From an uncultured Gammaproteobacteria bacterium (lineage in GTDB: Bacteria; Patescibacteriota; Patescibacteriia; Patescibacteriales; UBA12465): 57,829 bases of DNA. This document shows, piece after piece, positions 157 through 20,300 of the stretch. The stretch spans positions 1 to 57,829 of the forward strand of contig CAZPPI010000001.1 of assembly GCA_964588435.1 (NCBI GenBank), given 5' to 3'. Both the position numbers and the translations under genes were made by a program. The number at the start of each line of letters is the position of its first letter. The stretch's first letter is position 1. The notes below the pieces were generated by a model, which made no database searches, was not told the DNA's origin, and saw only the letters and a list, made by a program, of their open reading frames with translations.

Positions 157-3100
157 TTACTCTCCAGACCAGTTCTTACACAAAACTTCGGCTTGTTCCA
201 AAACCGTTTTAGTGGCCAATTCTTGTTTATCGGGTGGATATTTATATTTATTCAACAATTTTTTGACCAAGACACGAAGTTTAGCTTGCACGCTTTGTTT
301 GAGTGTCCAATCAATAGAAGTATTTTTGCGAAGCATAATGACTAACTCTTGAGCAATCTTTTTTAAGGTATCATCTCCCAATTCCATCACCGCACTATCA
401 TTGGCGGAAAGAGCGTCATAAAATGCCACCTCATCTTCGGTCAGATTCAGATTACCACCTCGTTCTTTTTCTTCTCTAATCTTTTTAGCCAATTCTACTA
501 GCTCGGCAATAACCTGAGCAGCTTCAATGGTTTGGTTTTGATATTTTTTAATTGTCTCTTCAAGCATTTTGGCAAACGACCGAGATTTAACCAAAAACTT
601 CTTTTCCATTGTGCGAATCTCGTCATTCAAAAGTCGCTTCAAAACTTCCAAAGCCACATTCTTGCGTTCCAATCCCTGTACCTCCTGCAAAAATTCATCG
701 GACAAGACAGCGACGTTCGGACTTTTAAGTCCGGCCGCGTCAAAAATATTTATAACCTTATCGGAAGTAACAGCATCAGAAACAATTTGTTTAATTGCTT
801 GATCGTAATCTTCCATTGTCGGTCCGCCCAGTCCGCCGGTTTGTTCAAACTTAGCGATAAACGCACGCACTGTTTGAAAAAATGCCACCTCATCACGAAT
901 ACTTATAGCTTCATTACTTGGCACTGACAAAGCAAAAGCCTGTGACAATTCTGCGACAACCTGCAAGTATCGCTTTTTGCCGTTATCCATACCCAAGATA
1001 TGATCCATGGCTTGACCGGCAATTTCAGCTTTATCTCGAGCTTTGTCGGTAAAATAGCCGGAATAATTAAAACCGTGATACATGGTTTTAACCGTTTCGT
1101 ATTTCTCAAGCATGACACTAATGGCATCTTCCTGTTTAACTGTCGGCTCTTCCTTGCCTTCTTGCGTGTAGTACGAGAGAGCTTCTTTGAGAGATGGCGC
1201 GATACCAAGATAATCAACAATAAGTCCGCCCGGTTTATCTTTGTAGACACGATTAACGCGAGCGATGGCCTGCATTAGTCCATGGCCTTGCATCGGCTTA
1301 TCAACATACATCGTATGCATTGACGGCGCGTCAAAGCCGGTCAGCCACATATCACGAACAATAACCAACTTGAGATCGTCTTTCGGATCTTTCATGCGAT
1401 CAGCCAATAAATCCCGATCATCTTTAGTATGAATATGTTTCTGATAATTCGCCGGATCGCTGGCCGAACCGGTCATCACTACTTTTATAAAACCTTTTTT
1501 GATATCGTCGCTATGCCACTGCGGTCGCAATTTTATAATCTCATCGTAAAGTTCAACCGCAATTCTTCTGCTCATAGAAACAAACATGCCTTTGCCATCC
1601 ATTACACCAAGGCGAGCCTCAAAATGTTCTACCACATCTTTGGCGATCAAAGCGACTCTTTTTTCCGAACCGATCATTGCTTCAAGCCGTGCCCACTTGC
1701 TCTTGAGCCTCTCTTTCTTTTCAACTTCTTCACCCTCAGTCAGTTCTTCAAAATCAGCGTCAATTCTAGGAGTAAGCTCTTTTAATAATTCAATCTTAGC
1801 CAAACGAGCTTCGTAATAAATCGGCACAGTGGCTTTATCTAGAACAGCCCGGGTAATATCATAGACATCAATATATTCTCCAAAGACTGCTCTGGTATTT
1901 TTATCGGATAACTCAATTGGTGTGCCGGTAAAACCGATAAATGATGCGTTCGGCAAAGCATCGTGCATATGGCGAGCAAAGCCGTCCAGGAAATCATACT
2001 GACTGCGATGAGCTTCATCGGCAACAACTATGATATTTTTACGGTCAGAAAGAAGCGGATGTTTGTCGCCCTTTTCTTCCGGCATAAATTTTTGAATAGT
2101 CGTAAATACCACACCGCCGGAAGCAACTGATAGAAGTTTTTTCAAATCAGCCCTGTCTTGTGCTTGTCTTGGAGTCTGACGGACTAAATCACTGCAATGG
2201 GAGAATACACCAAACAATTGTCCGTCCAAGTCATTGCGATCAGTTAATAAAACTAAAGTCGGATTATCTAGGGCCTGAATTATTTTACCGGCGTAAAAAA
2301 CCATAGACAAAGACTTGCCGGAACCTTGAGTATGCCAAACCACACCAGCTCGACGGTCGCCATTAGGAGAAGATGCATCAACCGTTCTCTCAACTGCCTT
2401 ATTGACCGCAAAATACTGATGATAAGCCGATAATTTCTTGATAGTTTTACTGACGTTATTTTTAGAGTCCTTTTCGCTTTCAAAGACAATAAAGTTTTTG
2501 ATGACATCCAATATTCTGTCTTTAGTAAAAATACCTTTGATTAAAATTTCCAAGTCATTGGTTTTTGAAATCTTTTTGCCGTCAACACTTTTCCAGCCAA
2601 CAAAGCGATCCATATCAGCCGAGATCGTGCCTACCAAGGCGTTCTTAATATGATCAACTAAAATACAAATCTCATTATAGGTAAACAGAGACGGAACATC
2701 TGCCTTGTAAGTCTGCATCTGGTTAAAAGCACTTTTTATTATCGCATTGGCATCGGCCGGGTTTTTTAACTCAAAGATAGCAACCGGTAAACCATTTATG
2801 AAAATCAAAATGTCCGGTCGGCGATTGCGATTATTTTCAATGAACGTAAATTGATTAACGGCCAGCCAGTCGTTATTGTCTAAATTTTTTGTATCAAAAA
2901 GATAAACCTTATCACCAGCGATTGTGCCATCCTCTCGACTATATTCAACATCTACGCCCTCAACTAACATTTTATGAAAAGCTTGGTTTGTAGTTAAAAG
3001 ATCGGGACTAGAATAAGCAACGCTCACAATCTTTTTTATGGCATCCTCTTGAGCACCGTTTGGGATGTCAGGATTAATTTTGTTAACAGCCGAACGTAGA

Positions 3101-3258
3101 CGATCAATCAAAACAATATCTTTGTATGACTGTCTCTCCGGATGTTCGCCGTCAAAAGCAATATCCGGTCCAAAAGCGACCGCGTAGCCAAGCTCTTCCT
3201 CAAACCATTCAAGGATTGCTTCTTCTAAATCTGACTCGATGTACTTGTAGTGCTTCAT
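157..3258 (-). CDS. hsdR: Type I restriction enzyme R subunit (HsdR)
   Basis: 1033-aa ORF with an HsdR-type N-terminus ([19 protein letters not shown]...). SF2 helicase motifs are present ([22 protein letters not shown]). It is the last gene of a tightly packed minus-strand operon that starts with hsdM. Confidence 0.92.
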
Positions 3259-3262
3259 ATTA

Positions 3263-4879
3263 TTATCTTGGATTAAATGATTTGGTATTACATACTTCTA
3301 ACGCCTCAAAAATTAATGACATATCAGTTTCAAGTTGTGTTTGAGTGATTTTAGATGCCACATCTTTCGCATACTCAACCTTTTTGCCGTCCGCCTGAAG
3401 TTGATGTGCTTCGGCCGAGGTCTTCGTGTATGGTGTCGGGTAATATTCTTCCAAGGATTCAGTCGTCAATTCAAAAACTTGATTGTTATCAAAAAGGTAT
3501 GGATATCCTTGCTTAAATAAATTATATTTTGTCTGCTGCGCAGTGTTTGGCTTATCAATCAATACTATTGCTTTTTCTTTGTAAATTGGGTTATCCGATC
3601 CTGCCAAAGGACAAAATAATTTGTGTACCGCTAAAAGTGTCGGCTCTTGCTCGCTAATGTCTCCACCGGCAAACAAAATTTTTATACCGGCGTATTTATC
3701 CTTATAAAATCTTTTAATAATGGCACTGATAAATTCAAACTCACTTTTACCTTCAACTATTAAAAAGTTCCGTGGCAACAATAGATCGGAAGGACTACCA
3801 CCAAGCAAATCAAAAATGATATTAATTTTATCCACATCCTCAACTTTTTGGATGTCCGTTATTCCATTCGTCTTTTCAACTTTAAAAATAGTTTGGATCT
3901 CATTATTATCAACAACAACCACCGATGAATGGGTATTAACCAAAACCTGATCAGTACCACAAATGTCTATCAACGCCTTTTTTAAAGCTCTTTGAGCAGA
4001 TGGGTGTAAATGTAATTCTGCTTCGTCAATCATAAAAAGAAACGTTCCGCCACCTGTTTGCTTTTTCCTGTAATCAGCAAAAGCTTGAATGATAGACAGC
4101 ATTATTGCCCGTTGCATTCCGTCACCTTTGGCCTCAGCCTTAGTTTCTATTCCGTCATCTACGGTAGTATCAAAACTCTTTAATAAATCGGAAAAGTGTG
4201 GAGGGTTAACTCCAAATTTTACCTTTGTCCCGTCTGGAAATTGTTTTTGCAAATAAATCTCCACCTGACTACCGAGTTTATCAAGCTCTTTCCTAACCTC
4301 TGAATCAGCGTTATCAAAAAGTTTTGTAAATTGTTGTTTAAAATCAATATAGTCTTGGGAACTCTCAATAATTGCTGTCAAAACACCAGAAAGCATTATT
4401 CCGATTGGGTTTTTATCCTTATATTTTGAAACATCATCCAGTCGAATCTTAGTATTTACATATTCCAATTTTGGCAAGAACTCGTTTATTGCAGTATCAA
4501 GACCGGACGGATTACCTTTATCTTCGCCGTTAACAAAATATATTCGCTTATGGTTAGTGCTTGTTTTTAATACAGAAAAAGTCGTTGCATCACCGAGCAT
4601 ATTTTTAATTTTTGTCTTATTTGCGTCAGTAGTAAGTTTATCGATATCAGAAGTTTCAACATTATCAAAAAATATCTCCACACTAATTTTATTAGATTGA
4701 TCTTTACCAAAGTACTCCTCATCCTCAGATGATTTGGCATTATAAAACCACTCTATCGCTTCAAAAAAGTTAGTCTTACCGTGATTATTCTGGCCGATGA
4801 AAACAGAAAATTTACTTGGCTCAACCATGATCTTTTTAAGGGAACGATAATTTTCTACTATAATTTTTGATATTTTCAT
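3263..4879 (-). CDS. OLD-family-like ABC/AAA ATPase with C-terminal Toprim-like domain, embedded in the Type I R-M operon
   Basis: 538 aa. Walker A is GQNNHGKT, with a signature-like GDGMQR, Walker [13 protein letters not shown] and H-loop NTHS. The C-terminal [11 protein letters not shown] ... VLIDKP resembles a Toprim domain. Gaps to both neighbours are 4 nt. Confidence 0.75.
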
Positions 4880-4883
4880 AAAA

Positions 4884-5327
4884 TCATTTCTTGTTTACCT
4901 TATTCCCAATCTTCTGATTAATAGATTTCTTCCACGCAAGTTGTTTATCTGACAAGTTTCTTTTTCTTAAAATATCCATATAGAATTTATACTCCTTGTC
5001 ATTGATCCATTTATTCTTAATTGCAAATTCCAGTGTTTCTGCATTAACTGATTTCTCAATGTTTTTTCTGATTTTTGTAACAGATCGGAAAATCTTATCT
5101 GATTTATTGTTAAATTTTTTTACACAGCAATTACCAACCCGTGATTCATTATTTGTCTTGTTATTTTTTATCAAACAAATTTCAAGTATTGGATAATGCC
5201 CACACAAACATTCTTCCGGATCCTCCACTCTCTCAATACCTATTAACTCCCACTCCAATTTTGCCTCGTCCCATTTTTGAGATTGGCTTAGTTTAAGAAG
5301 TTCAGTTGTTAATTGATATTGAGGCAT
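4884..5327 (-). CDS. Small Cys-rich (putative zinc-binding) protein of unknown function
   Basis: 147-aa ORF between hsdM-S and the ATPase (gaps of 12 and 4 nt). It has CLCGH...(19 aa)...GNCCVKKF cysteine pairs and a basic C-terminus. I recognise no family. Confidence 0.6.
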   Translation of the reverse strand: MPQYQLTTELLKLSQSQKWDEAKLEWELIGIERVEDPEECLCGHYPILEICLIKNNKTNNESRVGNCCVKKFNNKSDKIFRSVTKIRKNIEKSVNAETLEFAIKNKWINDKEYKFYMDILRKRNLSDKQLAWKKSINQKIGNKVNKK

Positions 5328-5339
5328 AATTAAATAACT

Positions 5340-7544
5340 TTAAAAATTATTAATCTCCATCTTTTTAAAGATTAACCTCATGAGTTCATTAAATAGCTCA
5401 TAAATTTTCGGCTCCGCAATCGGGATTGTAAAACTTGCCAAATCTTCTTTATTAAATCCAGCCTGGGCACTTCGATCGCTCATCGATATTAGTCTGTTTT
5501 GAAAATCATCACTTTTTAAGTAATATCGAAGATATTCTCTGTAGTAGTCTTTTTTAGGTACTACCTTAACAAGAGCTACGTTATAAGCACCATCAAGACC
5601 AAAAAGTATTCTCCCCACTGATGCACCATATCGAGCAATCATTATATCTTCCTTATTACATTTCCTTAGCTTCTTACTATCTGGAATAAACGTAAGGTGT
5701 GTATCGGTGTCGTAATCCCTTATCTGTACCAATCTAATATAACCTTCCTTTGGTTCACTTTTAAATTCAGATGCTGGAGGCTGTGTTCCTCCTTCAATAT
5801 TCATCAACTCACTAAGACTTCCGAATTTCCAATTCGATGGGAGTTCTCCGTGTTCCAAACTTAAAATCTTTCCGCCATTACTTTTATACGGCAGGTTGTT
5901 GTCATTAGGAAAATCAAAATCACAAAACCATTGTCTAAAAATTGATCTTCCGAATTCATATAGATCTTTGTTTTGTGCTGATAAAAAGTTTATTGATTTG
6001 TCTGTGTAGCCATACTTTTTTATTATTTGATTTATTTGATCTTGCAAAAATAAGCTTTCGCTATATTGTTTTTCGAACTTATTGAAAATATTATTTACTT
6101 TATTTTCAAAATTATCTTCGTCGCTTCCTACGCCTTGCTTAATATACCTACCAGGTACTAGAACAAAATTATTGTTGTCAATTTCATCAATAGAAACTGC
6201 CCTACAAAAACCTTCTTCATCTTTATAATTACTGTTTATAGATCTCCATGAATGGTATGCTGTTGTAATTTTGTTTAAGTCATCGTTAGTTAATTCACGA
6301 TGGTTCCTATCATTCTCTAATAACTTACCTAAATTTTGTGCATTTATAAACAACACTTCTTTATGCCTGTCTCTGAGCTTATGGTTAAATCTGTCTCGAG
6401 ATACAATCCATATGCATGCAGAGACAGGAGTTGTATAAAAAAGTTTACCGGGCAATGTAACGATACAATCAACTAAATTATTTTTAATTAAATTTTGTCT
6501 TGTTTCTGATTCGCTTGATTGATTAAGCGAACCATTGGCCAAAACAAAGCCAGCGATACCTGTTGGGGCAAGATGATGAATAATGTGTTGAATCCATGCA
6601 TAATTTGCATTACTGTCTGACGGTGTGCCATGTTTCCAGCGAACATCATTTTTTAATCTTTCTCCACCCCAGTCACTAATATTAAAAGGTGGATTTGCCA
6701 AAATAAAGTCTGCCTTCAAGTCTTTATGCAAATCATTATGAAAAGTGTCGGCATTATGAGATCCGAGATTGCCCTCAATACCACGAATAGCGAGGTTCAT
6801 TTTACAAAGCCTCCATGTTGTCGGGTTTGACTCCTGTCCGTAAATTGCCAAGTCGTGAGTTTGTCCACCATGAGCCTCAACGAATTTCTCGCTTTGCACA
6901 AACATACCGCCAGAACCACAACACGGATCGTAAACACGTCCTTTGTATGGCTCAATCATTTCTACGAGGAGTTTAACGACAGATTCAGGTGTAAAAAATT
7001 CTCCACCGCCCTTACCTTCAGCTCCAGCGAAACGACCGAGGAAGTACTCATAAACACGGCCAAGGACATCTTTGCTTCGGGTGGCTTTGTCGCCAAGACC
7101 GATACTACTCATTAAATCGATAAGTTCACCCAGACGAACCTTATCAAGATCAGGACGAGCGTAATTTTTGGCCAGCACGCCTTTAAGACTTGGATTATCT
7201 TTTTCAATAGCGATCATAGCATCGTCCAAAAGTTTGCCAATCTCTGGTTTCTTGGCATTAGCTTTTAAGTATTCCCAGCGAGCCTCGGCCGGAACCCAAA
7301 ACACACCTTCAGAGATATAAGCGTCTTTATCTTCTTCTTGACCTTCGTAATAATCAGAATCAGTCTTGATAGTTTTATATACTTCTTCAAATGAGTCAGA
7401 AATATATTTGAGAAAAATCAAACCGAGAACCACATGCTTATATTCAGCCGGGTCCATATTATTCCTCATTTTGTCGGCCGCTGACCAAAGAGTTTCTTTA
7501 AAGCCGGTATTAGCACCATTTGATTTTGTAGATTGTTTTGCCAT
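5340..7544 (-). CDS. hsdM: Type I R-M methyltransferase (HsdM) fused to a half-size specificity subunit (one TRD)
   Basis: 734 aa. The HsdM N-domain (LWSAADKMRNNMDPAEYKHVVLGLIFLKYISD), SAM motif (DPCCGSGGMF) and catalytic NPPF are present. Residues ~510-734 carry the HsdS central conserved region (FRQWFCDFDFPNDNNLPYKSNGG), a single target-recognition domain and the distal conserved helix. No separate hsdS ORF is present. Confidence 0.85.
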   Translation of the reverse strand: MAKQSTKSNGANTGFKETLWSAADKMRNNMDPAEYKHVVLGLIFLKYISDSFEEVYKTIKTDSDYYEGQEEDKDAYISEGVFWVPAEARWEYLKANAKKPEIGKLLDDAMIAIEKDNPSLKGVLAKNYARPDLDKVRLGELIDLMSSIGLGDKATRSKDVLGRVYEYFLGRFAGAEGKGGGEFFTPESVVKLLVEMIEPYKGRVYDPCCGSGGMFVQSEKFVEAHGGQTHDLAIYGQESNPTTWRLCKMNLAIRGIEGNLGSHNADTFHNDLHKDLKADFILANPPFNISDWGGERLKNDVRWKHGTPSDSNANYAWIQHIIHHLAPTGIAGFVLANGSLNQSSESETRQNLIKNNLVDCIVTLPGKLFYTTPVSACIWIVSRDRFNHKLRDRHKEVLFINAQNLGKLLENDRNHRELTNDDLNKITTAYHSWRSINSNYKDEEGFCRAVSIDEIDNNNFVLVPGRYIKQGVGSDEDNFENKVNNIFNKFEKQYSESLFLQDQINQIIKKYGYTDKSINFLSAQNKDLYEFGRSIFRQWFCDFDFPNDNNLPYKSNGGKILSLEHGELPSNWKFGSLSELMNIEGGTQPPASEFKSEPKEGYIRLVQIRDYDTDTHLTFIPDSKKLRKCNKEDIMIARYGASVGRILFGLDGAYNVALVKVVPKKDYYREYLRYYLKSDDFQNRLISMSDRSAQAGFNKEDLASFTIPIAEPKIYELFNELMRLIFKKMEINNF

Positions 7545-9105: not shown

Positions 9106-9930
9106 ATGAATGCCAACGAGAGATTAGAACGTGGACGATTAAAGTATTTAGAATACATTAAAAAAGCTAGAGAAAAACGAGCTAAAGGGACTTATAAAAC
9201 CAAAATTATTATCTCCGGATCATTTATTGAAGAATATATTTACCAAAATGAAATTACTTTAGGAAGAAAGGCGGTCCGTAGAAAGAAACGAAAAAATAAA
9301 CCCAAAGAAGAACAAACAGAAATGCGAAGCGGTGCCTTAAGGCGAACCAGAATGACAATTATGAGATTAGTAAATAGCAACCCCGATTTTATCACTTTCC
9401 TCACTCTGACTTTTGATGAAAATAAGTTTGAGAATAAAAAAGATATCACCGAATTTGAAAAGTGCAATTATCTGTTTATGACTTTCATCCAAAGATTAAA
9501 ATATAACTTCCTCGGCATTAAATATCTGGCCGTTCCCGAGTTTCAAGGCGATTATTATTTCCGCACCAATATCAAGAAAGAGTTCGGCGGAGCCATTCAT
9601 TATCACATTCTTCTCAACCAAATGGTTGATACTAAAAAAATTGAAAAAGTTTGGCGGCACGGTTTCGTAAAAATTAACAAGATAAAATCAATCAATAATG
9701 TCGGCTTATACGTCTCTAAATATTTAAGTAAAGAATCTTTTAACCGCAAATATTTCGGCAAGAAAAAGTTCTTTTATTCTCGCAACTTAAACCGCCCTCA
9801 AGAATTTAAAGGCCAAGAATGCGAAGAGATGTTAATGGGCTATTCTCCGCCACCAGAAAAAGTTTATGAAAAGGAATTTAGCAATAAATATCGAGGTGAA
9901 GTAATGGTAAACATTTATCAAATTAAATAA
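9106..9930 (+). CDS. HUH-superfamily rolling-circle replication initiator (phiX174 gpA / Microviridae VP4-like motifs)
   Basis: 274 aa with motif 1 FLTLTF, motif 2 HYHILL (HUH) and motif 3 YVSKYLSK (two-Tyr YxxKY, as in phiX174 gpA YVAKYVNK). Confidence 0.8.
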   Translation: MNANERLERGRLKYLEYIKKAREKRAKGTYKTKIIISGSFIEEYIYQNEITLGRKAVRRKKRKNKPKEEQTEMRSGALRRTRMTIMRLVNSNPDFITFLTLTFDENKFENKKDITEFEKCNYLFMTFIQRLKYNFLGIKYLAVPEFQGDYYFRTNIKKEFGGAIHYHILLNQMVDTKKIEKVWRHGFVKINKIKSINNVGLYVSKYLSKESFNRKYFGKKKFFYSRNLNRPQEFKGQECEEMLMGYSPPPEKVYEKEFSNKYRGEVMVNIYQIK

Positions 9931-9931
9931 T

Positions 9932-10111
9932 ATGGCGAACTTAGAAAAAATTAATTTCGGAGCTTACGGCTACCAGGAATGGCTAATCGGAAAAATTAAC
10001 GGCATGAAAAAAGCACTGGAGACCGGAGAAAGTTTTGAACATTCTGAAAGCCAAGAAATGCTTGAAAGAAAACTAGCCTCTTACGAAAAGGCTCTCAAAG
10101 AAATTGAGTAA
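9932..10111 (+). CDS. Small hypothetical protein (59 aa; below the ORF-track cutoff)
   Basis: The ATG lies 1 nt after the Rep stop codon. The ORF reads MANLEKINFGAYGYQEWLIGKINGMKKALE...KEIE* and is co-oriented in the operon. Confidence 0.45.
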   Translation: MANLEKINFGAYGYQEWLIGKINGMKKALETGESFEHSESQEMLERKLASYEKALKEIE

Positions 10112-10147
10112 AAAGTCCTGCACAAACTTTTTACGATAAATATATTT

Positions 10148-10324
10148 ATGATTAGCAAGTTCAGACTAGAACAACTGAAGATAATCATCAAAAATGATTA
10201 TGGACGAGATCTGACTGATTCCGAGGCATTTGAACTTGGTCACCAATTAGTCGCTTATTATAGCGGTTTAAAAAAGTTGAAATTATCTAGACATTTTGCT
10301 AATATGAAAATGCACACTAATTAA
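10148..10324 (+). CDS. Small protein (58 aa) homologous to the ORF at 18325..18489; candidate recombinase accessory factor
   Basis: MISKFRLEQLKIIIKNDYGRDLTDSEAFELGH... shares the DYG-x2-L-x2-SEA-x2-L core with the 54-aa ORF that precedes recombinase 2. Confidence 0.5.
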   Translation: MISKFRLEQLKIIIKNDYGRDLTDSEAFELGHQLVAYYSGLKKLKLSRHFANMKMHTN

Positions 10325-10449
10325 ATACAATAGCCAGAGGCTTTTTTTATACTTGTCCCCTAAAAGGGGGCGGTTCTGACTGGCAAGTATTGCTTTTGGC
10401 GATATTTAGTTAGTGTGCACAGAGCCGCTCCCTTTTAGTTACCAAAAAT

Positions 10450-12078
10450 ATGAAAAATACGGACAAAAAATGCATTTTATATTGCCGGGTTTCCTCTAAA
10501 GAGCAAGAAGAAAAAGGTTATTCTTTAGGAGCTCAGGAGAAACTACTCAAAGATTACGCTAGTCGTAATGATTTTAGTATTGTGAAAACCTACAAGATTT
10601 CCGAATCCGCCAGCGGCAAGCTGATCAGGAAGACTTTTTCGGAAATGTTGGTTTATACTAAAAAGAATAAACTTAATCTTATTTTGGTTGAAAAAATAGA
10701 TAGGCTAACTCGCAATTTAAAAGATGCGGCGATTATTAGCGACTGGATAAATGAAGATGAAAAACACGAGATTCATTTTGTTAAAGAAAATTTTATTGTT
10801 AATCGCAATACCAGAGCTCACGAAAACTTAGTTTGGGATATGAAAGTGGCAATTGCTAGATTTTATACTAATAATTTGAGCGAAGAGGTAAAGAAAGGAC
10901 AGAAAGCTAAACTTGAATCCGGTTGGATGCCACAACGCCCTTGTTTAGGTTATAAAACAATTGGCGATAAGGGACATAAAACCCAAATTATTGATGAAAA
11001 AATCGCTCCTTTAATTAAACAAGCTTTTGAATTATATGCGAGCGGTAATTATTCTTTAAAATTTTTAGCGGCAGTAATGTTTAATAAAGGGCTCAAAGCG
11101 CCATCAGAAAAAAAGTTGGCGAGCAGTACTTTGTATAATATTCTCACTAATCCATTTTATATCGGACAAATTATTTGGAATAAAAAAGTCTATTCGGGCA
11201 ATCATGAGCCAATAGTATCCCAAGCATTATTTGATAAAGTGCAATTAAAAATTAAACGTAAATTATCGGCGACTCAATTTAAAAAACATCTATTTATTTT
11301 TAAAGGCAATATGCGCTGCGCTGAATGTGGCGGCATTATTAGTTGGAGTCAAAGAAAGGGTCATATTTATGGAACTTGTAATCATTACCGCCCTTGCTTG
11401 CAAAATATTAGAGTTAGAGAACAAGATATTATTGATCAATTAATGGTCTATCTAAAACAGATGAAAGCGGCTACACCAGACTTAATTGATTGGCTAGAGA
11501 ATACAATAAAGGAAGTTGAGCCGACCAATAATAACCTTCTAGAAAGCCAAAAACAGGCCCTAGGGGAGAGTTTAAAACGAATTGAGAATAGATTAGACCT
11601 AATCTATAATGACAAATTAGACGGCAAGATCACTGAAGATTTTTACCTTAAAAAATACAATGAATTTAATGCTGAAAAAATAGATTTAGAAAAGAAAATA
11701 AAACAATTTAGTTCGAATAATCAGATAAGTGATTTTGAAAAAGGCATCAAGCTTCATCGTTTAGCTTATGAGGCTCCAGACTTAATTGATAACACCGAAG
11801 AGGAGACTGAAACTAAACGTTTAGTTTTATCACAATTATTTTCGGACTTTTCATTAGAGGGCGATAAAATAAGGGTAAAACACACTTTAGGTGGCGGATT
11901 TCTTGCCGAATGGATGCCTCGTGTAAATAGCAGTTTCGGACCAGTAAAATTTGGCGAAGATTATGAAAAAACAGGCCTTTTACAACCTGTTAGTTCATCG
12001 ATGCTCTCTCTAATGGACTGCTTTCGAATTTACTTTATATCCACAACAAACAAGATTTTTGTACCGAGATTTAATTAA
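10450..12078 (+). CDS. Large serine recombinase 1
   Basis: 542 aa. The resolvase catalytic N-domain (ILYCRVSSKEQ, DRLTRN), a recombinase domain and a zinc ribbon (CAECGG...CNHY) are present. The C-terminus KTGLLQPVSSSML is paralogous to that of recombinase 2. Confidence 0.9.
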   Translation: MKNTDKKCILYCRVSSKEQEEKGYSLGAQEKLLKDYASRNDFSIVKTYKISESASGKLIRKTFSEMLVYTKKNKLNLILVEKIDRLTRNLKDAAIISDWINEDEKHEIHFVKENFIVNRNTRAHENLVWDMKVAIARFYTNNLSEEVKKGQKAKLESGWMPQRPCLGYKTIGDKGHKTQIIDEKIAPLIKQAFELYASGNYSLKFLAAVMFNKGLKAPSEKKLASSTLYNILTNPFYIGQIIWNKKVYSGNHEPIVSQALFDKVQLKIKRKLSATQFKKHLFIFKGNMRCAECGGIISWSQRKGHIYGTCNHYRPCLQNIRVREQDIIDQLMVYLKQMKAATPDLIDWLENTIKEVEPTNNNLLESQKQALGESLKRIENRLDLIYNDKLDGKITEDFYLKKYNEFNAEKIDLEKKIKQFSSNNQISDFEKGIKLHRLAYEAPDLIDNTEEETETKRLVLSQLFSDFSLEGDKIRVKHTLGGGFLAEWMPRVNSSFGPVKFGEDYEKTGLLQPVSSSMLSLMDCFRIYFISTTNKIFVPRFN

Positions 12079-13288
12079 ATTTTATTAACTCTCCATTTTC
12101 ATCATACCCATAAGACCTACTATTTCCCGAAGCATTCCATATCATATCAAATGCTGGTCGTAGTATTTTTGACACATCATCTTCAAAATCATTTAATATA
12201 ACTTCTGGCACACATATATCTTCTTCGCCTATTTCTTCGCTATCTAAAAGCCAATTTCCAGTTTTTATCAAAAAACCCTTAACTCCAATTAGCGAGATAA
12301 ATATAAAATATGGTGGCTCTATTTCTAATTTTTTTAGTATATCTAAATTATTCTGAATAAATTTAATCAGCTCTCTTTCTATCGCAATCATTGGTATAAT
12401 CCCTGTGTCTGCTCCGTGAGCAATCATCAAGGAATTAAAGCCCTCTATGGTACCATTACGGAATATCTGAGAATAGCTCGAGGAAAAACCATCACTCGGT
12501 GAATATGCGCAAACACCGTCCAAATTAATCCTTGTATTCCAACCAGACGAATATAATGGTCTAAAATCTATCTTGTGTTCTTTTAACTCTAATAATTGTT
12601 TGGATGTCAGCTTATTTTCATCAATAACACCAGATAATGGTATGATATGCACTGCGATAAAACTGTCTGAACTTTTCAACTTAACAGGACCATTATTAGC
12701 CTTGAGTTCAAAAATTCTATTTTTTCTAAAAATTCTTATACGATCAACTAAATTACTACCTTTAATAAACGCGTTTTTTAGCTCGTGCACATCCATTTCA
12801 TATTTTCCATTACTATTGCGTCTAAAAAATCTGTTAGAGTTTTTGAAAACAACCCTGTGAGGGCCATTCAAGCTTGGTTTTATTCTAATTAACAAAACAG
12901 ATTTTTTATCATCAACATCAATAGCACGAATATCAACCTCTATTCTCGGAGATATTCCGTCTCTAATAATACTTTCGAGCCTTTGAATTTCTGTATCTTT
13001 ATTTATATTCTCCAAACCAAATTCTTTATCTATCTCTTTTTTATTCTCAAAAATACCAAAAATTAAATCACCTCCATCGGTGTTAGAAAAAGAAGATACA
13101 TCAGCAAGAAATTCTTTTTTGTCATCATCGCCATTGCCAGGAACAGCCGATTTATATTCTAATGTTTTTCCTTCTAATACTTGATTATCAACCAAATTCT
13201 GTATATCGGATAACTCAATTGTATTAATATTTTTAGTAATCATATTTGCCAAACTATAAATTATTAATAAGCATATTAATATTTCCAA
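12071..13288 (-). CDS. AlbA_2 / Schlafen-like divergent-AAA domain protein with uncharacterised C-terminal domain
   Basis: 405 aa. KTLEYKSAVPG ... FSNTDGGDLIFGI matches the AlbA_2 signature (ExK ... AN/SNTxGGxLxxGV). The real start may be the internal Met at 13243. Confidence 0.7.
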   Translation of the reverse strand: MEILICLLIIYSLANMITKNINTIELSDIQNLVDNQVLEGKTLEYKSAVPGNGDDDKKEFLADVSSFSNTDGGDLIFGIFENKKEIDKEFGLENINKDTEIQRLESIIRDGISPRIEVDIRAIDVDDKKSVLLIRIKPSLNGPHRVVFKNSNRFFRRNSNGKYEMDVHELKNAFIKGSNLVDRIRIFRKNRIFELKANNGPVKLKSSDSFIAVHIIPLSGVIDENKLTSKQLLELKEHKIDFRPLYSSGWNTRINLDGVCAYSPSDGFSSSYSQIFRNGTIEGFNSLMIAHGADTGIIPMIAIERELIKFIQNNLDILKKLEIEPPYFIFISLIGVKGFLIKTGNWLLDSEEIGEEDICVPEVILNDFEDDVSKILRPAFDMIWNASGNSRSYGYDENGELIKFN

Positions 13289-13623
13289 ATACCGAGCTTT
13301 TTTAATGCAATCCTCGTCAATATATAAGATAGTGGGTATAAAAATTCAAACCAGTTTTCAAATAGAACACCCCAACCTAAAAAATATATGAGGATAAAAG
13401 CTATCAAAAGATATATTAAATTATAAACAACACTACCAATACCCCTATCAAAATATTTAATTACAAAAAATAATAAAATTAAATATATAATAGTATCTTT
13501 TGAAGTTTCCCATAAATTAGGCATCACTACTCCGAGAGCCTTAGCAATCTCTTGTTGAGCCTGCTCTAATATCTTTATAGGCTGAAACTGACTTAATGCA
13601 TTTTGTAAATCAGGGTCAGCCAT
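13276..13623 (-). CDS. Small membrane protein (2-3 predicted TM helices)
   Basis: 115 aa with the hydrophobic stretches IIYLILLFFVI and LIYLLIAFILIYFLGWGVLF. It is translationally coupled to both neighbours. Confidence 0.6.
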   Translation of the reverse strand: MADPDLQNALSQFQPIKILEQAQQEIAKALGVVMPNLWETSKDTIIYLILLFFVIKYFDRGIGSVVYNLIYLLIAFILIYFLGWGVLFENWFEFLYPLSYILTRIALKKLGIWKY

Positions 13624-13624
13624 A

Positions 13625-14437
13625 TTAAATATCTGCTCTATTAATTATCTCATATCTTTTTTGTAATGGTGGACATAAAATAGAAAAAGAATTATCAAAA
13701 GACAAAACGGTCCTTTTCTTACCACAATCAACTGATATGATAGCATCACCGATACCTTTATTATTTCTTAACTTATCCGCGTTTTTAATATCATCTTTTA
13801 TTTCTTTCAAATATTTATACATACTGACTAATTTTTTATCATCACGGAATTCATCGCAACCCAACAAATTAACCAATTCTTTGTCATACTTAATCCAAAA
13901 ATCATTTAATGGTAAACATTTTCTCTTATTATAAGCCGATATAAATTCCTTATATTCTTTCTCATTTCTTATATTTAATTTTATAATTTCATCATTTTGG
14001 AATTCTCCAACCATAGAACTAACATAAGTATAAAAAACTTCTTCCAAATTAAATATTACGGCTCTTAATTGTCTCAAACAAAGATTTATATTTTTACATT
14101 CTATAGATGTGCTAATTCTAAAAATAACCGATGTCATAATCAAAGCATTTTTCACCTGTCTTACTTGAAATTTATTAGACCATTCAGAAAAAGCTTTTGA
14201 CACATCACCAAGAATTTTTACCAAGAAATAAAAATCTATTATACTTTTTAACAATCCGGTCTTAAATTCATAAAGAACAAAATATGAACAAACAATAGTT
14301 GATCCATCACTGGTTTTCTTATATAAAAAATCAGACACTTCTGGACTTTTGCATCTCTCAATCTGAACAGAAGTGTCTAATAAATAACTATTTTTTTGTT
14401 TGCAGTTATTCTTCTTTTTCATTAGATAAAATTTCAA
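13625..14437 (-). CDS. PIN-like nuclease domain protein with large helical insertion
   Basis: 270 aa. Four acidic positions occur in PIN order: YLLDTSV, FVLYEFKTG, GIGDAIIS and LSFDNSF. Confidence 0.6.
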   Translation of the reverse strand: MKFYLMKKKNNCKQKNSYLLDTSVQIERCKSPEVSDFLYKKTSDGSTIVCSYFVLYEFKTGLLKSIIDFYFLVKILGDVSKAFSEWSNKFQVRQVKNALIMTSVIFRISTSIECKNINLCLRQLRAVIFNLEEVFYTYVSSMVGEFQNDEIIKLNIRNEKEYKEFISAYNKRKCLPLNDFWIKYDKELVNLLGCDEFRDDKKLVSMYKYLKEIKDDIKNADKLRNNKGIGDAIISVDCGKKRTVLSFDNSFSILCPPLQKRYEIINRADI

Positions 14438-14984
14438 TTTTTAATCTGTTAACTTGTTTGGAAAAAATTTTCAATTTATCCCAATCAATAACGCCATCTA
14501 TAAATCTTGATAACTCCCCGATAAAAGACTTGATTTGCCCTTCCGAAATATTAACCCAACAGTTATTATCCATTATAAGACTTACGGAGTTTACAAAAAT
14601 ATCATTTTCTTCTTTAGCAGAAAGATACCTGTCATAATGATAAATTTTATTTTTTATTTCATCTATCTTAAACAAACTATCTTCTGTTCCATTTTCAAGC
14701 CAGTAACTAAAATCGTCTATCAAATCTTTAACAAATTTTGCGGAATTAAATTCAACATATTCATTTGAAAATTTAACACCAGTACTGTATTCCCGAAAAA
14801 AATCAATTCTATTATCATTTTTACCATTATCACTCTCCTGTTTTATCTTCTCGCTTGTAAAAATATCGTCTCGAGAATATTTTTTTGGCACGTTAAAACT
14901 TGGGGAAATTGTTTCTTTCTTATTTTCTTCTTCTTTATCTATCTCAATTCTTGAAATTGTATGACTATAGTCAATGAGCTGCAT
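14406..14984 (-). CDS. Hypothetical protein
   Basis: 192-aa ORF that overlaps the downstream PIN gene by 32 nt. No recognisable motif. Confidence 0.55.
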   Translation of the reverse strand: MQLIDYSHTISRIEIDKEEENKKETISPSFNVPKKYSRDDIFTSEKIKQESDNGKNDNRIDFFREYSTGVKFSNEYVEFNSAKFVKDLIDDFSYWLENGTEDSLFKIDEIKNKIYHYDRYLSAKEENDIFVNSVSLIMDNNCWVNISEGQIKSFIGELSRFIDGVIDWDKLKIFSKQVNRLKIEILSNEKEE

Positions 14985-14987
14985 AAA

Positions 14988-15731
14988 CTATTGAATGATA
15001 TATTCTAAATAAGAACTCGCAATTTCTAAATTTTTATCAATCAAATTATCAATTTTTTCTATATTCTTTTCTGATTTTATATAAGTATCAACATCTAAAT
15101 AAATAAAACTTTTATATTCATCCATTTTGGCACTAATTTTTTCAACGTCAAACTGACTATTAAATCTCTGCAATGCCTCGTCTTTGGTAACTGGCCCCAA
15201 TATTACATTATTATTAATTCCGTCCTTAATAGCATTTATTGAAAACAAAACATCATTAACACTGTCTGATGATATTTGTAAAATATCATTCGTGTATATT
15301 TTTGAATGCAATAAATCCACAAGTTCATTAAAATCAAATTTAGTGCCAAAGATTTGGATATTCCTAAAACCCAAATGTTCAAATTCCTTTTCTTTGTCGT
15401 TCATTAAGCTAAATGCTTTTTGAAGATTAGCACTAAGCTCTTCCGTGTTTTCTTCTTTTTCATTTATATAAGAAAGTGAATTATACAAAATTTGAAACAA
15501 TTTATATTCGTCAGGAGAGTAAAGTGTAACATCTTGTCTGTTGGCTATACGCCAATGTTCAAATTCTTTTTCAAAATTTTTAGAAACAGCAATAGTATCC
15601 TGCCAAGATGAAAGAGTTGGCACAAAACGAACTTGCCCAATTATTCTTTGGCCAATTTTTATAAAATTTTTTGTCATATATTTGTAATTATAAATTACCA
15701 CATATAAACCCTTTTGTAAATCAAAAAACAC
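14988..15731 (-). CDS. Hypothetical protein (first gene of the five-gene operon)
   Basis: 247-aa ORF, 3 nt upstream of the next gene. The start is probably the internal MTKNFIKIG. No recognisable motif. Confidence 0.55.
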   Translation of the reverse strand: MFFDLQKGLYVVIYNYKYMTKNFIKIGQRIIGQVRFVPTLSSWQDTIAVSKNFEKEFEHWRIANRQDVTLYSPDEYKLFQILYNSLSYINEKEENTEELSANLQKAFSLMNDKEKEFEHLGFRNIQIFGTKFDFNELVDLLHSKIYTNDILQISSDSVNDVLFSINAIKDGINNNVILGPVTKDEALQRFNSQFDVEKISAKMDEYKSFIYLDVDTYIKSEKNIEKIDNLIDKNLEIASSYLEYIIQ

Positions 15732-15776: not shown

Positions 15777-15945
15777 GACTACCCAATTAAAAGTTCACGA
15801 TCATAAAGCCCGCTTTGGCGGTTTTTGTCCGTCTTTTGTCTCACGCTTGTGGGCAGAGATGGGCAGTTAACCTTCCACAAGCGAGACTTTCGGGCCTTCG
15901 TGAACAGTGGGTAGTCAGGTTTGACTGCCCTTTTTTGTTGGGCAG
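15777..15945 (+). ncRNA. Candidate structured RNA or 5' leader (multi-helix junction)
   Basis: Nested long-range pairings are GACTACCCA/TGGGTAGTC (15777-85 with 15908-16), GTTCACGA/TCGTGAAC, GCCCG/CGGGC and GTCTC-a-CGCTTGTGG/CCACAAGCG-AGAC. A 3' hairpin CTGCCC..GGGCAG follows. A TATAAT box at 15770-15775 lies just upstream. The region is locally GC-richer than its flanks. Confidence 0.5.
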
Positions 15946-15970: not shown

Positions 15971-16558
15971 ATGCCAAACGAAACAATGAAAAAATGTAAA
16001 AAGTGTGGAGAGGAGATTTTAGCATCAGCTAAAACCTGTAAACATTGTCATTCTGATTTACGAAACTGGTTTATGAAACATAAAATCATAACCATCTTTG
16101 TAATATTCCCCATTGTGCTTACAATGTTTGTAAGTGCTTTTAATGATTTAGATGATGCAAAAAATGAAGATAATAATACTGGTTCAAATAACACAATTCA
16201 AAGCGAGGTTAAAATAGAACCAAAAACCATTACCGAAATTGAGATATCATCCTCAAAAATAACGAAAGATAGCATTGGCACGCCAATACTTAATGTTTCT
16301 TTTCTTAATAAAACAGATAAGACGGTTGACGGTGTTGATATTGAAGCGTATTTCTTGAACAACTTTGATGAACCAGTCGGTCAATTTGGCATGAAGCGAG
16401 AAGAAGCTTTTGGCGGTTCTATTCAAGAAAAAATCAATCCAAAAGGAACTTATACCGCTCAATGGAATTTAGCAGTATACGAACAAACGACTAAAATTAA
16501 GTCTATAAAAATAACACGGGTTCATTTTACAGACGGGACGATAGTTGAAGCAAACTAA
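15971..16558 (+). CDS. Zinc-ribbon / single-pass membrane protein with extracytoplasmic domain
   Basis: 195 aa. CKKCGEE...CKHCHS zinc ribbon, then the TM helix IITIFVIFPIVLTMFV, then a beta-rich C-terminal domain. Confidence 0.7.
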   Translation: MPNETMKKCKKCGEEILASAKTCKHCHSDLRNWFMKHKIITIFVIFPIVLTMFVSAFNDLDDAKNEDNNTGSNNTIQSEVKIEPKTITEIEISSSKITKDSIGTPILNVSFLNKTDKTVDGVDIEAYFLNNFDEPVGQFGMKREEAFGGSIQEKINPKGTYTAQWNLAVYEQTTKIKSIKITRVHFTDGTIVEAN

Positions 16559-16802: not shown

Positions 16803-16831
16803 TTTAGGGGGCAAATTAAACACTAACAAGC

Positions 16832-16902: not shown

Positions 16903-17352
16903 ATGAAAAATGTAAATAATCAAAATGATTGTATTATAATAAAACAAGGTCGTCGCATCCAAATTTCTTTTGGACCAAAAACAAATCTCACTGAAATAAG
17001 AGAATTTATATCTAAAAATAGTGTCATAATCAAAAATTTACAAAAAGATATATTAACCAAACAAGGGATTAAGAAAGAAAAAAGGAAAAAGTTTACATAT
17101 AACGAAATTAGAGATAAAAGAATTTGTGAACTTAGTCTACTTAAAAGAAATGAGTTGTTAGATTTAATTATTAAAAAAGAAGACTACAAATTAATTAACT
17201 ATAAAGACAGTTTAATAGCCGAAATTATTAATCAAGACATAAAGCCTATTTTTTTCTTAGGAAAAGATATTGCTCCAGCTAAAATAAGTTCTGACAATGT
17301 CAGAAAAATAATATCAAGAAAAAAGAGGCTATTTTTACAAGGAAAATTATAG
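16903..17352 (+). CDS. Hypothetical basic protein (element B)
   Basis: 149-aa Lys-rich ORF with no recognisable motif. Confidence 0.55.
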   Translation: MKNVNNQNDCIIIKQGRRIQISFGPKTNLTEIREFISKNSVIIKNLQKDILTKQGIKKEKRKKFTYNEIRDKRICELSLLKRNELLDLIIKKEDYKLINYKDSLIAEIINQDIKPIFFLGKDIAPAKISSDNVRKIISRKKRLFLQGKL

Positions 17353-18521: not shown

Positions 18522-20267
18522 ATGAAAAATGAAATTAAAACCGAAAAAATTAAATATTTTGCCTACTTAAGAAAATCAACAGAAGGAGAAGAAAAACAAG
18601 CCCTTTCCATTGATGGTCAAAGAAGAAAAGCTGTTGAAATTTTTCCAGACTTACAAATCATTGAATTCTTAGAAGAAAGACATTCTGCTTTTAAGCCATA
18701 TAACAGACCAGTATTCAATAACATGATGGAGAGGATAAGAAAAGGAGAGGCTCAAGGAATTATTACATGGCACCCCGATAGATTAAGTCGAAACGAAATA
18801 GACGCGGCTACTATAACATATTTAGCAAGAACTGGGGTAATAAAAGAATTAAAATTTGGTTCCTATAATTATGATAACAGTCCAGAAGGAATAATGATGT
18901 TGCAAATGTCATTAAGTCAATCTCAATATTCATCATCTAAACTCGGTAAAGATGTAAAAAGAGGCTTAGGGGATAAAGCTGAAATTGGTTGGTGGCCAGG
19001 TCCCTCAAAACCAGGATACTTGAATACTCCCAACGGACAAAAAGGAAAAAAAATTATATTAAATGACCCAGAGAGATTTCCAATCATCAAGAAGGTGTTT
19101 AACACTTTACTAACCCACCTTTATTCCCCATCTCAGGTTTTAGATATGCTTAATAATGACTGGGGATACACGAGTGGTCCAAGAGGAAAGTTCGGAGGCA
19201 AACCAATGTCTCATAGTTATTATTACAAAATGCTTTCAGATACATTTTATTATGGCAGTTTTGAATTCCCCAAAAATAGTGGTAAATGGTATCAAGGAAA
19301 GCACGAGCCGATGATTAGCAAGGAAGAATATGATGAAATCCAAATGATGATTGGGAGAAGCTTATCAAATCCTCGTGTAGGAAATCGCCAAGACGCTTTT
19401 TATGGCTCTTTCTTTTGTGGTGAATGTGGTGGCACAATGACACCTGATTTCAAAATTCAAACAATATGCACCAACTGTAATCATAAATTTTCATCACGGA
19501 ATAAAGACTGTTGCCCGTCTTGTGGAACGAAGTTAGTGGATATGATAAATCCAAAACAACTTAAATATATTTATTATTGTTGTAAAAAAAATAAAGACAG
19601 AAACTGCAAACAAACTAAAAACATAGAAGAAAAACAATTAAACGATCAGATTATTGAAATTCTTAATCAGATTAGAATTTCAGAAAAAATGAAAAAATGG
19701 TTTATAAAACAATTAGACAGTGCCAGCAACAAAGAAATAAAGGATAGAACTGATATCAGAAAATCACTACAAAATAAATATGAAAATTGTCAGAAAAAAC
19801 TCGATAATTTGTTAAATCTTTTCATATCTATCAATAACACCAATAAAGAAATATTAAGTGATGATGATTATAGTCAAAAGAAGAAAGCCTTAGATATTGA
19901 AATGGCTGATATTAAAAATAGTATTAATAAATTAGAACAAAGAGCTGATGAATGGGCTGAATTAGCAATAGACACATTTAACTTCGCTTGTTACTCAAAA
20001 TATCATTTTGAGAATGGAGATTTTGAAACCAAAAAGAAAATTATTCTTGGGCTTGGTTCGAACCTAACAATGAAAGATGGAAAAATAGAGGTTATTTTGC
20101 CAAAACACCTTGAATTGATAAAAAATTCCAAAGAAATTATCCAAGCCGAAATTAAAACATTCGAACCTAATAATTTTATTGAATATAAAGCAAAAACAGG
20201 CTTATATCAGCCTGTTTCTACATCTATGCTCCCGGGGTCGGATTCGAACCGACGACCAATTGGTTAA
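18522..20267 (+). CDS. Large serine recombinase 2 (3' end antisense to tRNA-Asn)
   Basis: 581 aa. Resolvase domain (YLRKSTEGEE, DRLSRN), recombinase domain and Cys-rich zinc ribbon are present. The last 13 codons including the stop (20229-20267) are antisense to the 3' half of the tRNA. Confidence 0.9.
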   Translation: MKNEIKTEKIKYFAYLRKSTEGEEKQALSIDGQRRKAVEIFPDLQIIEFLEERHSAFKPYNRPVFNNMMERIRKGEAQGIITWHPDRLSRNEIDAATITYLARTGVIKELKFGSYNYDNSPEGIMMLQMSLSQSQYSSSKLGKDVKRGLGDKAEIGWWPGPSKPGYLNTPNGQKGKKIILNDPERFPIIKKVFNTLLTHLYSPSQVLDMLNNDWGYTSGPRGKFGGKPMSHSYYYKMLSDTFYYGSFEFPKNSGKWYQGKHEPMISKEEYDEIQMMIGRSLSNPRVGNRQDAFYGSFFCGECGGTMTPDFKIQTICTNCNHKFSSRNKDCCPSCGTKLVDMINPKQLKYIYYCCKKNKDRNCKQTKNIEEKQLNDQIIEILNQIRISEKMKKWFIKQLDSASNKEIKDRTDIRKSLQNKYENCQKKLDNLLNLFISINNTNKEILSDDDYSQKKKALDIEMADIKNSINKLEQRADEWAELAIDTFNFACYSKYHFENGDFETKKKIILGLGSNLTMKDGKIEVILPKHLELIKNSKEIIQAEIKTFEPNNFIEYKAKTGLYQPVSTSMLPGSDSNRRPIG

Positions 20268-20300
20268 CAGCCAACTGCGCTACCGCTGCGCCACCCGGGA
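20229..20300 (-). tRNA. tRNA-Asn (GTT)
   Basis: 72-nt cloverleaf folded by hand. Acceptor is TCCCGGG/CCCGGGA, D arm GCGC-AGCGGTA-GCGC, anticodon loop CTGTTAA and T arm GTCGG-TTCGAAT-CCGAC. CCA is not encoded. Confidence 0.9.

Follow-up and report, generated by a model that had tools for sequence, protein, structure and literature searches.

A conserved three-gene cassette of Patescibacteria with a predicted PIN-like nuclease, a candidate defence module located beside a prokaryotic Schlafen gene

Introduction

The closest described counterparts of the genes reported here are VapBC modules, tripartite cassettes and Schlafen proteins. Tripartite toxin-antitoxin (TA) or abortive infection (Abi) cassettes exist, for example as toxin-antitoxin-chaperone modules. 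Prokaryotic Schlafen (pSlfn) nucleases are defined by an Ex4(E/D)xK motif and act as single genes, and those with unannotated fusion domains make up 17% of the set (PMC13056530, Nat Microbiol 2026). The same study reports a defence neighbour for 69.6% of the pSlfn genes, which had about tenfold more defence genes around them than housekeeping genes. A Schlafen protein with an unannotated C-terminus gave abortive-infection defence (PMC13552941). Patescibacteria, also called the candidate phyla radiation (CPR), represent a large share of bacterial diversity. Very few of their defence systems are known and only one phage had been described (PMC12366544), while ldgA and 'Dallas' were obtained by functional metagenomics as Patescibacteria-restricted defence genes (PMC12366544, Cell Host Microbe 2025). 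Here five adjacent minus-strand genes at 12071 to 15731 of a 57,829-nt stretch of DNA (contig CAZPPI010000001.1, assembly GCA_964588435.1; the whole stretch is called the window) were compared with these systems. They are carried by a mobile element with serine recombinases and a tRNA-Asn gene, and a preliminary description of the DNA had taken all five as one undescribed defence module. By comparison of sequences, genes 1-3 (the trio) are an autonomous, conserved and uncharacterised Patescibacteria cassette, which is a credible candidate for a toxin-antitoxin-like or abortive-infection defence cassette.

Organization of the five genes

The five open reading frames (ORFs) and their junctions were recovered from the ORF list as they had been described. 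There was a gap of 3 nt between genes 1 and 2, an overlap of 32 nt between genes 2 and 3 (17 nt from the ATG at 14422), a gap of 1 nt between genes 3 and 4, and an overlap of 13 nt between genes 4 and 5. The coordinates stood as those of ORFs, while the starts of genes 1 and 5 had probably been placed too far upstream. Gene 1, the first of the trio, was first drawn as 14988..15731 (minus strand, 247 aa), and its start is most likely the downstream ATG at 15677, which gives a protein of 229 aa (14988..15677), since the DNA of three related contigs (L009, L011 and L013) is homologous to the window no further upstream than 15720, and gene 1 was called at 229 aa in related loci. Gene 2 (14406..14984, minus strand), the second, encodes 192 aa, and gene 3 (13625..14422, minus strand; 13625..14437 as first drawn), the third, encodes a PIN-like protein of 265 aa. 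Gene 4 (13276..13623, minus strand) encodes a small membrane protein of 115 aa. Gene 5 was first drawn as 12071..13288 (minus strand, 405 aa); its start is most likely the ATG at 13243, because the same start was called in L009, which leaves a pSlfn-type protein of 390 aa (12071..13243) and turns the 13-nt overlap with gene 4 into a 32-nt gap.

Between 7739 and 20267, no minus-strand ORF of 100 aa or more existed besides the five genes, so the earlier statement that the element has no other minus-strand genes was borne out at that size. The GC content was 27% across 13-15 kb, whereas it was 32-35% in the flanks. No terminator-like site was seen between genes 1 and 5 in a consensus scan; the same kind of scan gave a weak pattern match to a terminator-like hairpin (11970..11991, minus strand), with an 8-bp stem followed by a T-run, about 80 nt 3' of gene 5. 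The cassette has an upstream block of its own (15678..15720, minus strand), which ends at the edge of DNA homology at 15720. The homology with L009, L011 and L013 starts here, 43 nt before the ATG at 15677, and the upstream sequences of the window and these three contigs have TTTACAAAA..GTTTATATGTG.TAATTTATA in common (by eye). This block probably holds the promoter of the trio and a short leader.

Conservation in related loci

Contigs were fetched for the homologues of gene 3 and gene 1, giving about 15 independent loci from metagenomes and metagenome-assembled genomes (MAGs), and the five window proteins served as queries for tblastn and jackhmmer searches of all ORFs of these contigs. Wherever a locus had room, genes 1, 2 and 3 were found together in the same order, thus the gene order is beyond chance. 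The trio loci were the window, L001, L003, L004, L009, L011, L012, L016, L017, L018, L025, L026, L027 and L028, among which L017 is from Ca. Daviesbacteria, L018 from a Patescibacteria MAG, L026 on a 753-kb contig and L028 from Patescibacteria assembly GCA_035946335.1. The identity of gene 3 to that of the window went from 91% down to 33% in these loci. The protein sizes were 228-241 aa for gene 1, 192-215 aa for gene 2 and 260-277 aa for gene 3, with a damaged gene 2 in L011 that was called at 174 aa. The spacing of genes 1 and 2 ranged from -4 to +6 nt, and an overlap of 17-50 nt joined genes 2 and 3 in 10 of 12 loci. The named hosts of the trio were Daviesbacteria, WWE3 and the Patescibacteria group, and every named source belonged to Patescibacteria. 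In species-representative genomes the trio was rare (2 of 185,579), by a motif-pattern scan derived from a 13-sequence alignment that reaches fairly close relatives only. Neither gene 3 nor gene 1 of the trio was found in the IMG/VR viral contigs.

Genes 4 and 5 were missing from most of the trio loci, so the conserved unit is composed of three genes and not of five. L009 carried the whole five-gene block at 94% nucleotide identity to the window, and the DNA homology between the two stopped at 12003. In L011, with 78% nucleotide identity, the position of gene 5 was taken by an unrelated 320-aa protein with a Cys/His-rich C-terminus, which had no match in Pfam or PADLOC. Where the amino-acid identity was 68% or lower, both genes 4 and 5 were missing and genes 1-3 were retained. 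The proposal of one co-inherited module of five genes thus held across genomes for genes 1-3 only, and the membrane component that it included is confined to the closest clade.

Gene 3, a PIN-like protein

The gene 3 family contains at least 420 representative clusters by an exhaustive profile search, nearly all of 250-295 aa; this is a lower bound, and a word-indexed search gave 12 clusters. The motifs LLDTSV, VLYEF, IGDAIIS and SFDNSF were present in the window protein. In 133 diverse members, the residues were kept at D/E16 (132 members), T17 (129), E52 (133), D226 (133) and D243 (131). Position 16 was D in 89 and E in 43 sequences of the alignment, and the position two residues further was Ser or Thr.

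A structure of gene 3 was predicted by AlphaFold2 from the 133-sequence alignment with a mean predicted local distance difference test (pLDDT) of 96.6 and a predicted template modelling score (pTM) of 0.92. It superseded an earlier run with 13 homologues only, which had a pLDDT of 59.5 and gave a meaningless Foldseek result. The model showed five short strands (residues 12-15, 42-46, 136-138, 238-241 and 256-259) and about 150 aa of helical insertions, in two blocks at ~72-135 and ~140-224. The acidic residues were located at strand ends or helix starts, which we take to be their arrangement in the PIN domains of VapC structures too. PIN proteins came on top in a Foldseek search against the PDB, with the best target-normalised template modelling (TM) scores at 0.53-0.59. 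They included a protein of M. jannaschii (3i8o), Rickettsia VapC2 (3zvk), Shigella VapC (5ecw/5ecd/5ed0), VapC15 (4chg), PAE0151 (2fe1) and 5f4h, an archaeal RuvB-like helicase with an N-terminal PIN domain.

The family profile of gene 3 was then aligned by hhalign with Shigella VapC, using a sequence identical to PDB 3tnd. D16 was paired with D7 and E52 with E42, and the motifs LLDTS and YEF were paired with LDTN and MEL of VapC, with P=3e-4 for the full profile and P=3e-5 for the N-terminal half. The C-terminal half gave nothing usable against this single VapC sequence, which was too weak a template. The C-terminal motifs GDA[VI]IA and [ST]hDxxF agreed with the canonical PIN pattern by inspection, not statistically, and the whole series hhLDTS, E, GDAhIA and [ST]hDxxF is in what we take to be the canonical PIN order. 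A search of the gene 3 profile against PDB sequences gave nothing credible, and there was no match in the BFVD viral structure library. The family-wide conservation of the acidic positions, the VapC/PIN proteins as best fold matches and the D16/E52 pairing agree with the preliminary description, in which gene 3 was PIN-like with a long helical insertion. Gene 3 is read here as a PIN-like, VapC-like predicted nuclease that retains all the active-site acidic residues, and its substrate would be RNA.

Genes 1, 2 and 4

The gene 1 family comprises 32 clusters, and the only named sources are Patescibacteria. Its orthologues of 228-241 aa were directly upstream of gene 2 in every locus with room, and their invariant residues include R11, G14, Q15, P20, W42, G103, R105, G161, P162, D195 and D197. 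No significant match for gene 1 existed in Pfam, PADLOC or the PDB. One of ten gene 1 orthologues matched TIGR04255 (E=2.8e-5), an uncharacterised NCBIfam family, which the window protein did not match and which had no mention in the searched literature.

Gene 2 always sits between genes 1 and 3. It is made of a polar and weakly conserved N-terminal part of ~70-80 aa and a conserved C-terminal domain of ~110 aa, with mean top-residue frequencies of 0.34 and 0.54, respectively. No family or PDB match was obtained for it (Pfam, PADLOC, NCBIfam, PHROGs and a PDB profile search), and no mutual homology among the families of genes 1, 2, 3 and 5 was detected by hhalign.

Gene 4 was found only in L009 (94% identity) and L011 (60%), where it lies 1 nt after gene 3. 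The hydropathy of its protein, judged by eye, indicated two hydrophobic segments, strong at ~62-88 and weaker at ~45-60, and perhaps a third, consistent with the two or three transmembrane segments assigned to it before. It had no family match in Pfam, PADLOC, NCBIfam or PHROGs, and is a predicted accessory membrane protein of one shallow clade.

Gene 5, a prokaryotic Schlafen protein

Gene 5 matched PF04326 (SLFN_AlbA_2) with E=3.2e-18 over residues 39-165 of the 405-aa ORF and positions 1-117 of the 118 of the profile, which bears out the AlbA_2/Schlafen domain recognised earlier, and the motifs LEYKS and FSNTDGGDLIFGI quoted for it were present in the sequence. The catalytic Ex4(E/D)xK motif was identified as E24-GKTL-E29-Y-K31 (LEGKTLEYK). 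In an alignment from four phyla E24 and K31 were invariant and position 29 was E or D. The family profile matched CbCash (9ylu, E=7.5e-8) and the catalytic-lobe regions of SLFN12, 5, 14 and 11, and the motif region was aligned with ESTHVEIK of the SLFN12 catalytic lobe and with CbCash. The domain had been proposed as a nucleic-acid-sensing one; it is better read as a Schlafen tRNase-type effector with Ex4ExK.

Full-length relatives of gene 5 with 30-33% identity were observed on plasmids of Bacillus, Ralstonia, Burkholderia, Paraburkholderia and Rhizobium, with a coverage of 96-97% in those of Bacillus, Ralstonia and Paraburkholderia. The C-terminal ~240 aa are conserved across phyla, in the relatives from the latter three genera. 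This part had no Pfam match, as for the ~250 aa left unassigned in the preliminary description, and PHROGs gave an AlbA_2-type match only. No trio was present near the relatives in the three plasmid regions inspected, and among the trio loci beyond the window gene 5 occurred only in L009. It was not found in GenBank phages or IMG/VR viral contigs.

Gene 5 is assigned to the prokaryotic Schlafen proteins (pSlfn type), independent of the trio. Following the 2026 literature (PMC13056530, PMC13552941), it is regarded as a self-contained defence gene of a known kind, of which it is a predicted new member. The label of a candidate undescribed defence module may still apply to the trio, unmatched in PADLOC v2, and does not to gene 5. 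Gene 5 is co-located and perhaps co-transcribed with the trio, and presumably has no functional tie to it. Genes packed like an operon on a mobile element should hence not be taken as one system; here a known kind of single-gene Schlafen defence directly abuts an unrelated cassette.

Element, neighbourhoods and host

The GyrB of the window fell into a 90%-identity cluster with Falkowbacteria and Patescibacteria GyrB, and the host is assigned to Patescibacteria as Falkowbacteria-like. A Type I restriction-modification (R-M) operon (157..7544) is located 4.5 kb from the five-gene block. In this operon, HsdM and a single Methylase_S specificity domain are joined in one 734-aa ORF, and a 538-aa Old-like ATPase together with a 147-aa ORF of no assigned function lies between hsdR and hsdM; the ATPase matched the PADLOC 'Old' model with E=1e-61 over model positions 2-418 of 578. 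A Rep gene (PF23343, REP_ORF2-G2P) followed by a 542-aa large serine recombinase occupies 9106..12078, and the stop of this recombinase overlaps that of gene 5 by 8 nt in convergent orientation. These two genes may be a second small integrated replicon which abuts the first element. On the other side there is the junction of a 581-aa large serine recombinase with a tRNA-Asn gene (18522..20300; tRNA-Asn at 20228-20300 on the minus strand), where the recombinase ORF overlaps the 3' end of the tRNA by 40 nt. The flanking serine recombinases and the R-M operon with its embedded OLD-like gene were thus found as described before, and the mobile, defence-island-like setting is supported.

The same recombinase/tRNA-Asn junction was present in L013 (3066-5118) at 87% nucleotide identity with other cargo, and the island of L001 likewise starts at a tRNA-Asn (1925-1997), which points to a family of CPR islands that target tRNA-Asn and exchange their defence cargo. 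No tRNA-derived direct repeat was found at the ends of the integrative element; serine integrases recombine at very short core sites, and the absence of such repeats is usual.

Known defence genes were located within a few kb of the trio in about half of the loci. In the window they were the Type I R-M operon with Old and the pSlfn gene. L013 has the tRNA-Asn/581-aa recombinase element of the window, with a Bsp6I R-M system and a MazG-like gene inserted next to gene 1, and the tRNA-Asn island of L001 carries AbiU, a BglII R-M system and a serine recombinase. PD-T4-2/NsnA-like and HEPN genes were directly upstream of the trio in L003, and PD-Lambda-2 B and C about 0.9 kb upstream in L017. Downstream of the trio, an Alw26I-type R-M system and DUF4238 were seen in L026, and an HNH nuclease and a resolvase in L028, while a pSlfn and a methyltransferase gene were near the trio of L009. 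A separate observation concerns a 658-aa unannotated protein of L003 (1777-3753), placed between the PD-T4-2-like pair and the trio, which gave a weak PIN match (E=0.006, residues 242-340).

A structured GC-rich patch of about 155 nt (15783-15940, plus strand) lies between gene 1 and the ORF on the 16-kb side (15971..16558). The z-scores of its fold were -5.7 on the plus strand and -4.6 on the minus strand. On the plus strand it is preceded by a conserved TTGATA-17-TAAATT box and ends in a terminator-like hairpin with T6 (15909-15930). The patch was 95% conserved in L013, where it is away from gene 1 and both flanks are non-homologous. In L014, where it immediately precedes gene 1, the conservation was 72%. 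Compensatory double changes were seen at four base pairs, among three sequences only. The patch had no match in Rfam and none in the IMG/VR viral contigs, and may encode a small RNA whose transcription diverges from that of the operon. In addition, three 34-nt direct repeats (ATAGACAAACCTAACAAAC...) at 16671-16806, spaced by 34 and 68 nt and upstream of the ORF 16903..17352, resemble iterons or sites for a regulator of the integrative element. Elsewhere in the window, a DUF3800-IX RNA motif of Rfam was identified at 32237-32306 (plus strand; 51.6 bits, gathering threshold 36.8), adjoining the ORF 32331..32957 on the opposite strand.

Proposed function and alternatives

The five genes are best explained as composite defence-type cargo on a tRNA-Asn serine-recombinase element, composed of a TA/Abi-like trio, the clade-specific gene 4 and the separate pSlfn gene 5, with a probability of about 0.6. 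The PIN nuclease of gene 3 would be the effector of the trio, with the helical insertions wrapped around the PIN core. Gene 2 could be a stoichiometric partner or inhibitor of gene 3 because of the translational coupling; it would be made in fixed proportion to gene 3, and its C-terminal domain would keep the nuclease inactive. Gene 1 may serve for sensing or as a scaffold. Upon a cue from a phage or from stress, the nuclease of gene 3 would be set free and, in the manner of VapC enzymes, cleave RNA (tRNA or rRNA most likely), which would arrest growth. Gene 5 would act separately, through a tRNase-type effector domain (Ex4ExK) fused to its unannotated C-terminal putative sensor. On this composite reading, a more specific form is possible and put forward tentatively: the trio might be an undescribed, Patescibacteria-centred Abi-type anti-phage system, having a new insertion-regulated PIN subfamily and two partners of novel fold, with a downstream hot spot in which single-gene defences (pSlfn, Zn-ribbon protein, HNH) are swapped.

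Several results weigh against the proposed function. Genes 1-4 had no match in PADLOC, NCBIfam, PHROGs or, above threshold, in Pfam, and no match to a known system ties the trio to defence. No DNA-binding domain typical of type II antitoxins was detected in genes 1 and 2 by Pfam, NCBIfam or PHROGs. Gene 3 scored 13.4 bits against Pfam PIN (PF01850; cut-off 23.6) and covered the first 47 profile positions only; a Pfam PIN match was seen in only one of 13 members, and spliced 'mini-PIN' cores of ten members, with the insertion removed, gave no gain in PIN significance. The Foldseek matches to PIN proteins, with E of 1 or above and a probability of 0.63 or below, were not statistically significant, because the insertions break the alignment. 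In the L004 lineage gene 2 carries a 1-nt frameshift beside an apparently intact gene 3. It was located at 2415-2440 of L004 inside the conserved domain of gene 2 (also in L005-L008, L021 and L022), in the sequence ...GAT AGC CTA ACA TAT TAA with the onward reading A CAT ATT AAA AAT ATT AAG, and was identical in contigs of five different samples (L004-L008); possible readings are a pseudogene that has become fixed, a split that is tolerated and programmed +1 frameshifting. In L011 an in-frame premature stop at 1669-1671 (..GMIDWDR*KTFSKQINRLQIEILSNEK*) removes the last ~19 aa of gene 2, which may be an error in a contig with a coverage of ~2.6x. A damaged gene 2 beside an intact gene 3 is awkward for gene 2 as an essential antitoxin. 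For the neighbourhoods, the share of trio loci with defence neighbours is a raw count and not an enrichment over a CPR background, and L016, L027 and L018 (as annotated) had no recognised defence gene near the trio.

If all five genes were one system, with a PIN nuclease, an AlbA_2 'sensor' and a membrane component, the same strand, the tight junctions and the lack of a predicted internal terminator would be accounted for, as would the intact block of L009 and the place of gene 4, 1 nt after gene 3 in the window, L009 and L011. L009 is near-identical to the window and hence gives little information, though, and gene 5 has already given way to another gene at 78% nucleotide identity. The trio persists after the loss of genes 4 and 5 at 68% amino-acid identity or lower, the gene 5 family stands alone on plasmids of Bacillota and Pseudomonadota, and published pSlfn proteins act as single genes (PMC13056530). 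A single five-gene system is thus highly improbable. The trio could instead be a pure addiction TA module which stabilises integrative elements and has no anti-phage role, as its toxin-like PIN effector, the coupling to the upstream gene and the islands with serine recombinase and tRNA-Asn would allow; this is unlikely, as the 8-10 kb of flanking DNA fetched for L026, L027 and L017 contained no recombinase, defence genes prevail over element core genes among the neighbours, and damaged copies of gene 2 occur beside intact gene 3. Addiction and anti-phage roles of the trio are not mutually exclusive.

A function outside conflict, such as the processing of RNA or DNA in the service of the CPR host or of the mobile element (its replication, excision or transfer), is quite improbable. 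In its favour, PIN-like domains also take part in maturing RNA and repairing DNA, no domain known from conflict systems was seen in genes 1 and 2, and the trios of L016 and L027 are among metabolic genes. On the other hand, the distribution is sporadic (2 genomes in a scan that reaches fairly close relatives only), the trio is low-GC cargo whose place next to R-M, Abi and PD systems varies, and one and the same cassette is surrounded by different element backbones from locus to locus. As to gene 3 itself, it would be hardly credible that it is no nuclease and represents a haloacid dehalogenase (HAD)-like phosphatase, another capped Rossmann-like enzyme or a dead PIN scaffold. Besides the lack of a significant PIN match, a few capped HAD-fold proteins were among its non-significant Foldseek matches (eya2 3hb0, UTR4 2g80 and the haloacid-dehalogenase-like 8wbo/8wbq). 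The HAD fold needs DxD, whereas gene 3 has D or E at position 16 and Ser/Thr two residues later; the target TM scores were 0.19-0.21 vs 0.53-0.59 for PIN proteins, and hhalign picked D7 and E42 of VapC as equivalents. With no DxD and a TM score of ~0.2, the identity as a HAD phosphatase was rejected.

Comparison with known systems

None of the five proteins matched any system of PADLOC-DB v2.0.0 at E<=1, in accordance with the earlier remark that no named system has this composition, and none of the window proteins matched NCBIfam. No description of the trio was found in the searched literature or in PADLOC v2, with the sequences of Dallas and ldgA outside the comparison. The trio would provide a concrete candidate immune or toxin module native to Patescibacteria, compact (~2.1 kb), with its own upstream block and hundreds of clusters. 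It would also add a PIN protein of new architecture, gene 3, which contains large helical inserts and goes with two obligate partners of unassigned fold.

Gene 5 is like the described pSlfn proteins (PMC13056530) in its PF04326 domain of more than 100 aa, the Ex4(E/D)xK motif and the fusion to an extra domain, as well as in its neighbourhood of defence island and serine recombinases. It differs in its Patescibacteria host and in the ~240-aa C-terminal domain, which matches no annotated sensor, so it would fall among the 17% 'unannotated fusions'; its activity is predicted from sequence. The CRISPR-associated Cash (PDB 9ylu) is related to gene 5 by the profile match. The trio resembles ldgA and Dallas in its restriction to Patescibacteria, in a comparison by description only. 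By analogy, it may also be likened to the tripartite TA cassettes, with three tightly coupled and co-inherited genes, of which one encodes a predicted toxic enzyme and two encode putative non-enzymatic partners; genes 1 and 2 had no similarity to SecB-like chaperones or known antitoxins at the sequence and profile level.

VapC toxins have the same four acidic positions in the same order as gene 3, and the toxin is coupled to an upstream gene as gene 3 is to gene 2. However, VapC has ~130 aa, whereas gene 3 has 265 aa with ~150 aa of helical insertions and is below the Pfam PIN threshold. VapBC has one small DNA-binding antitoxin (ribbon-helix-helix, AbrB, helix-turn-helix or Phd), whereas in the trio gene 3 is preceded by two genes for proteins of ~230 and ~195 aa, and the trio is a fixed three-gene unit. 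The trio is best described as a putative conflict module with a PIN effector, in which both the partners and the PIN architecture would be novel.

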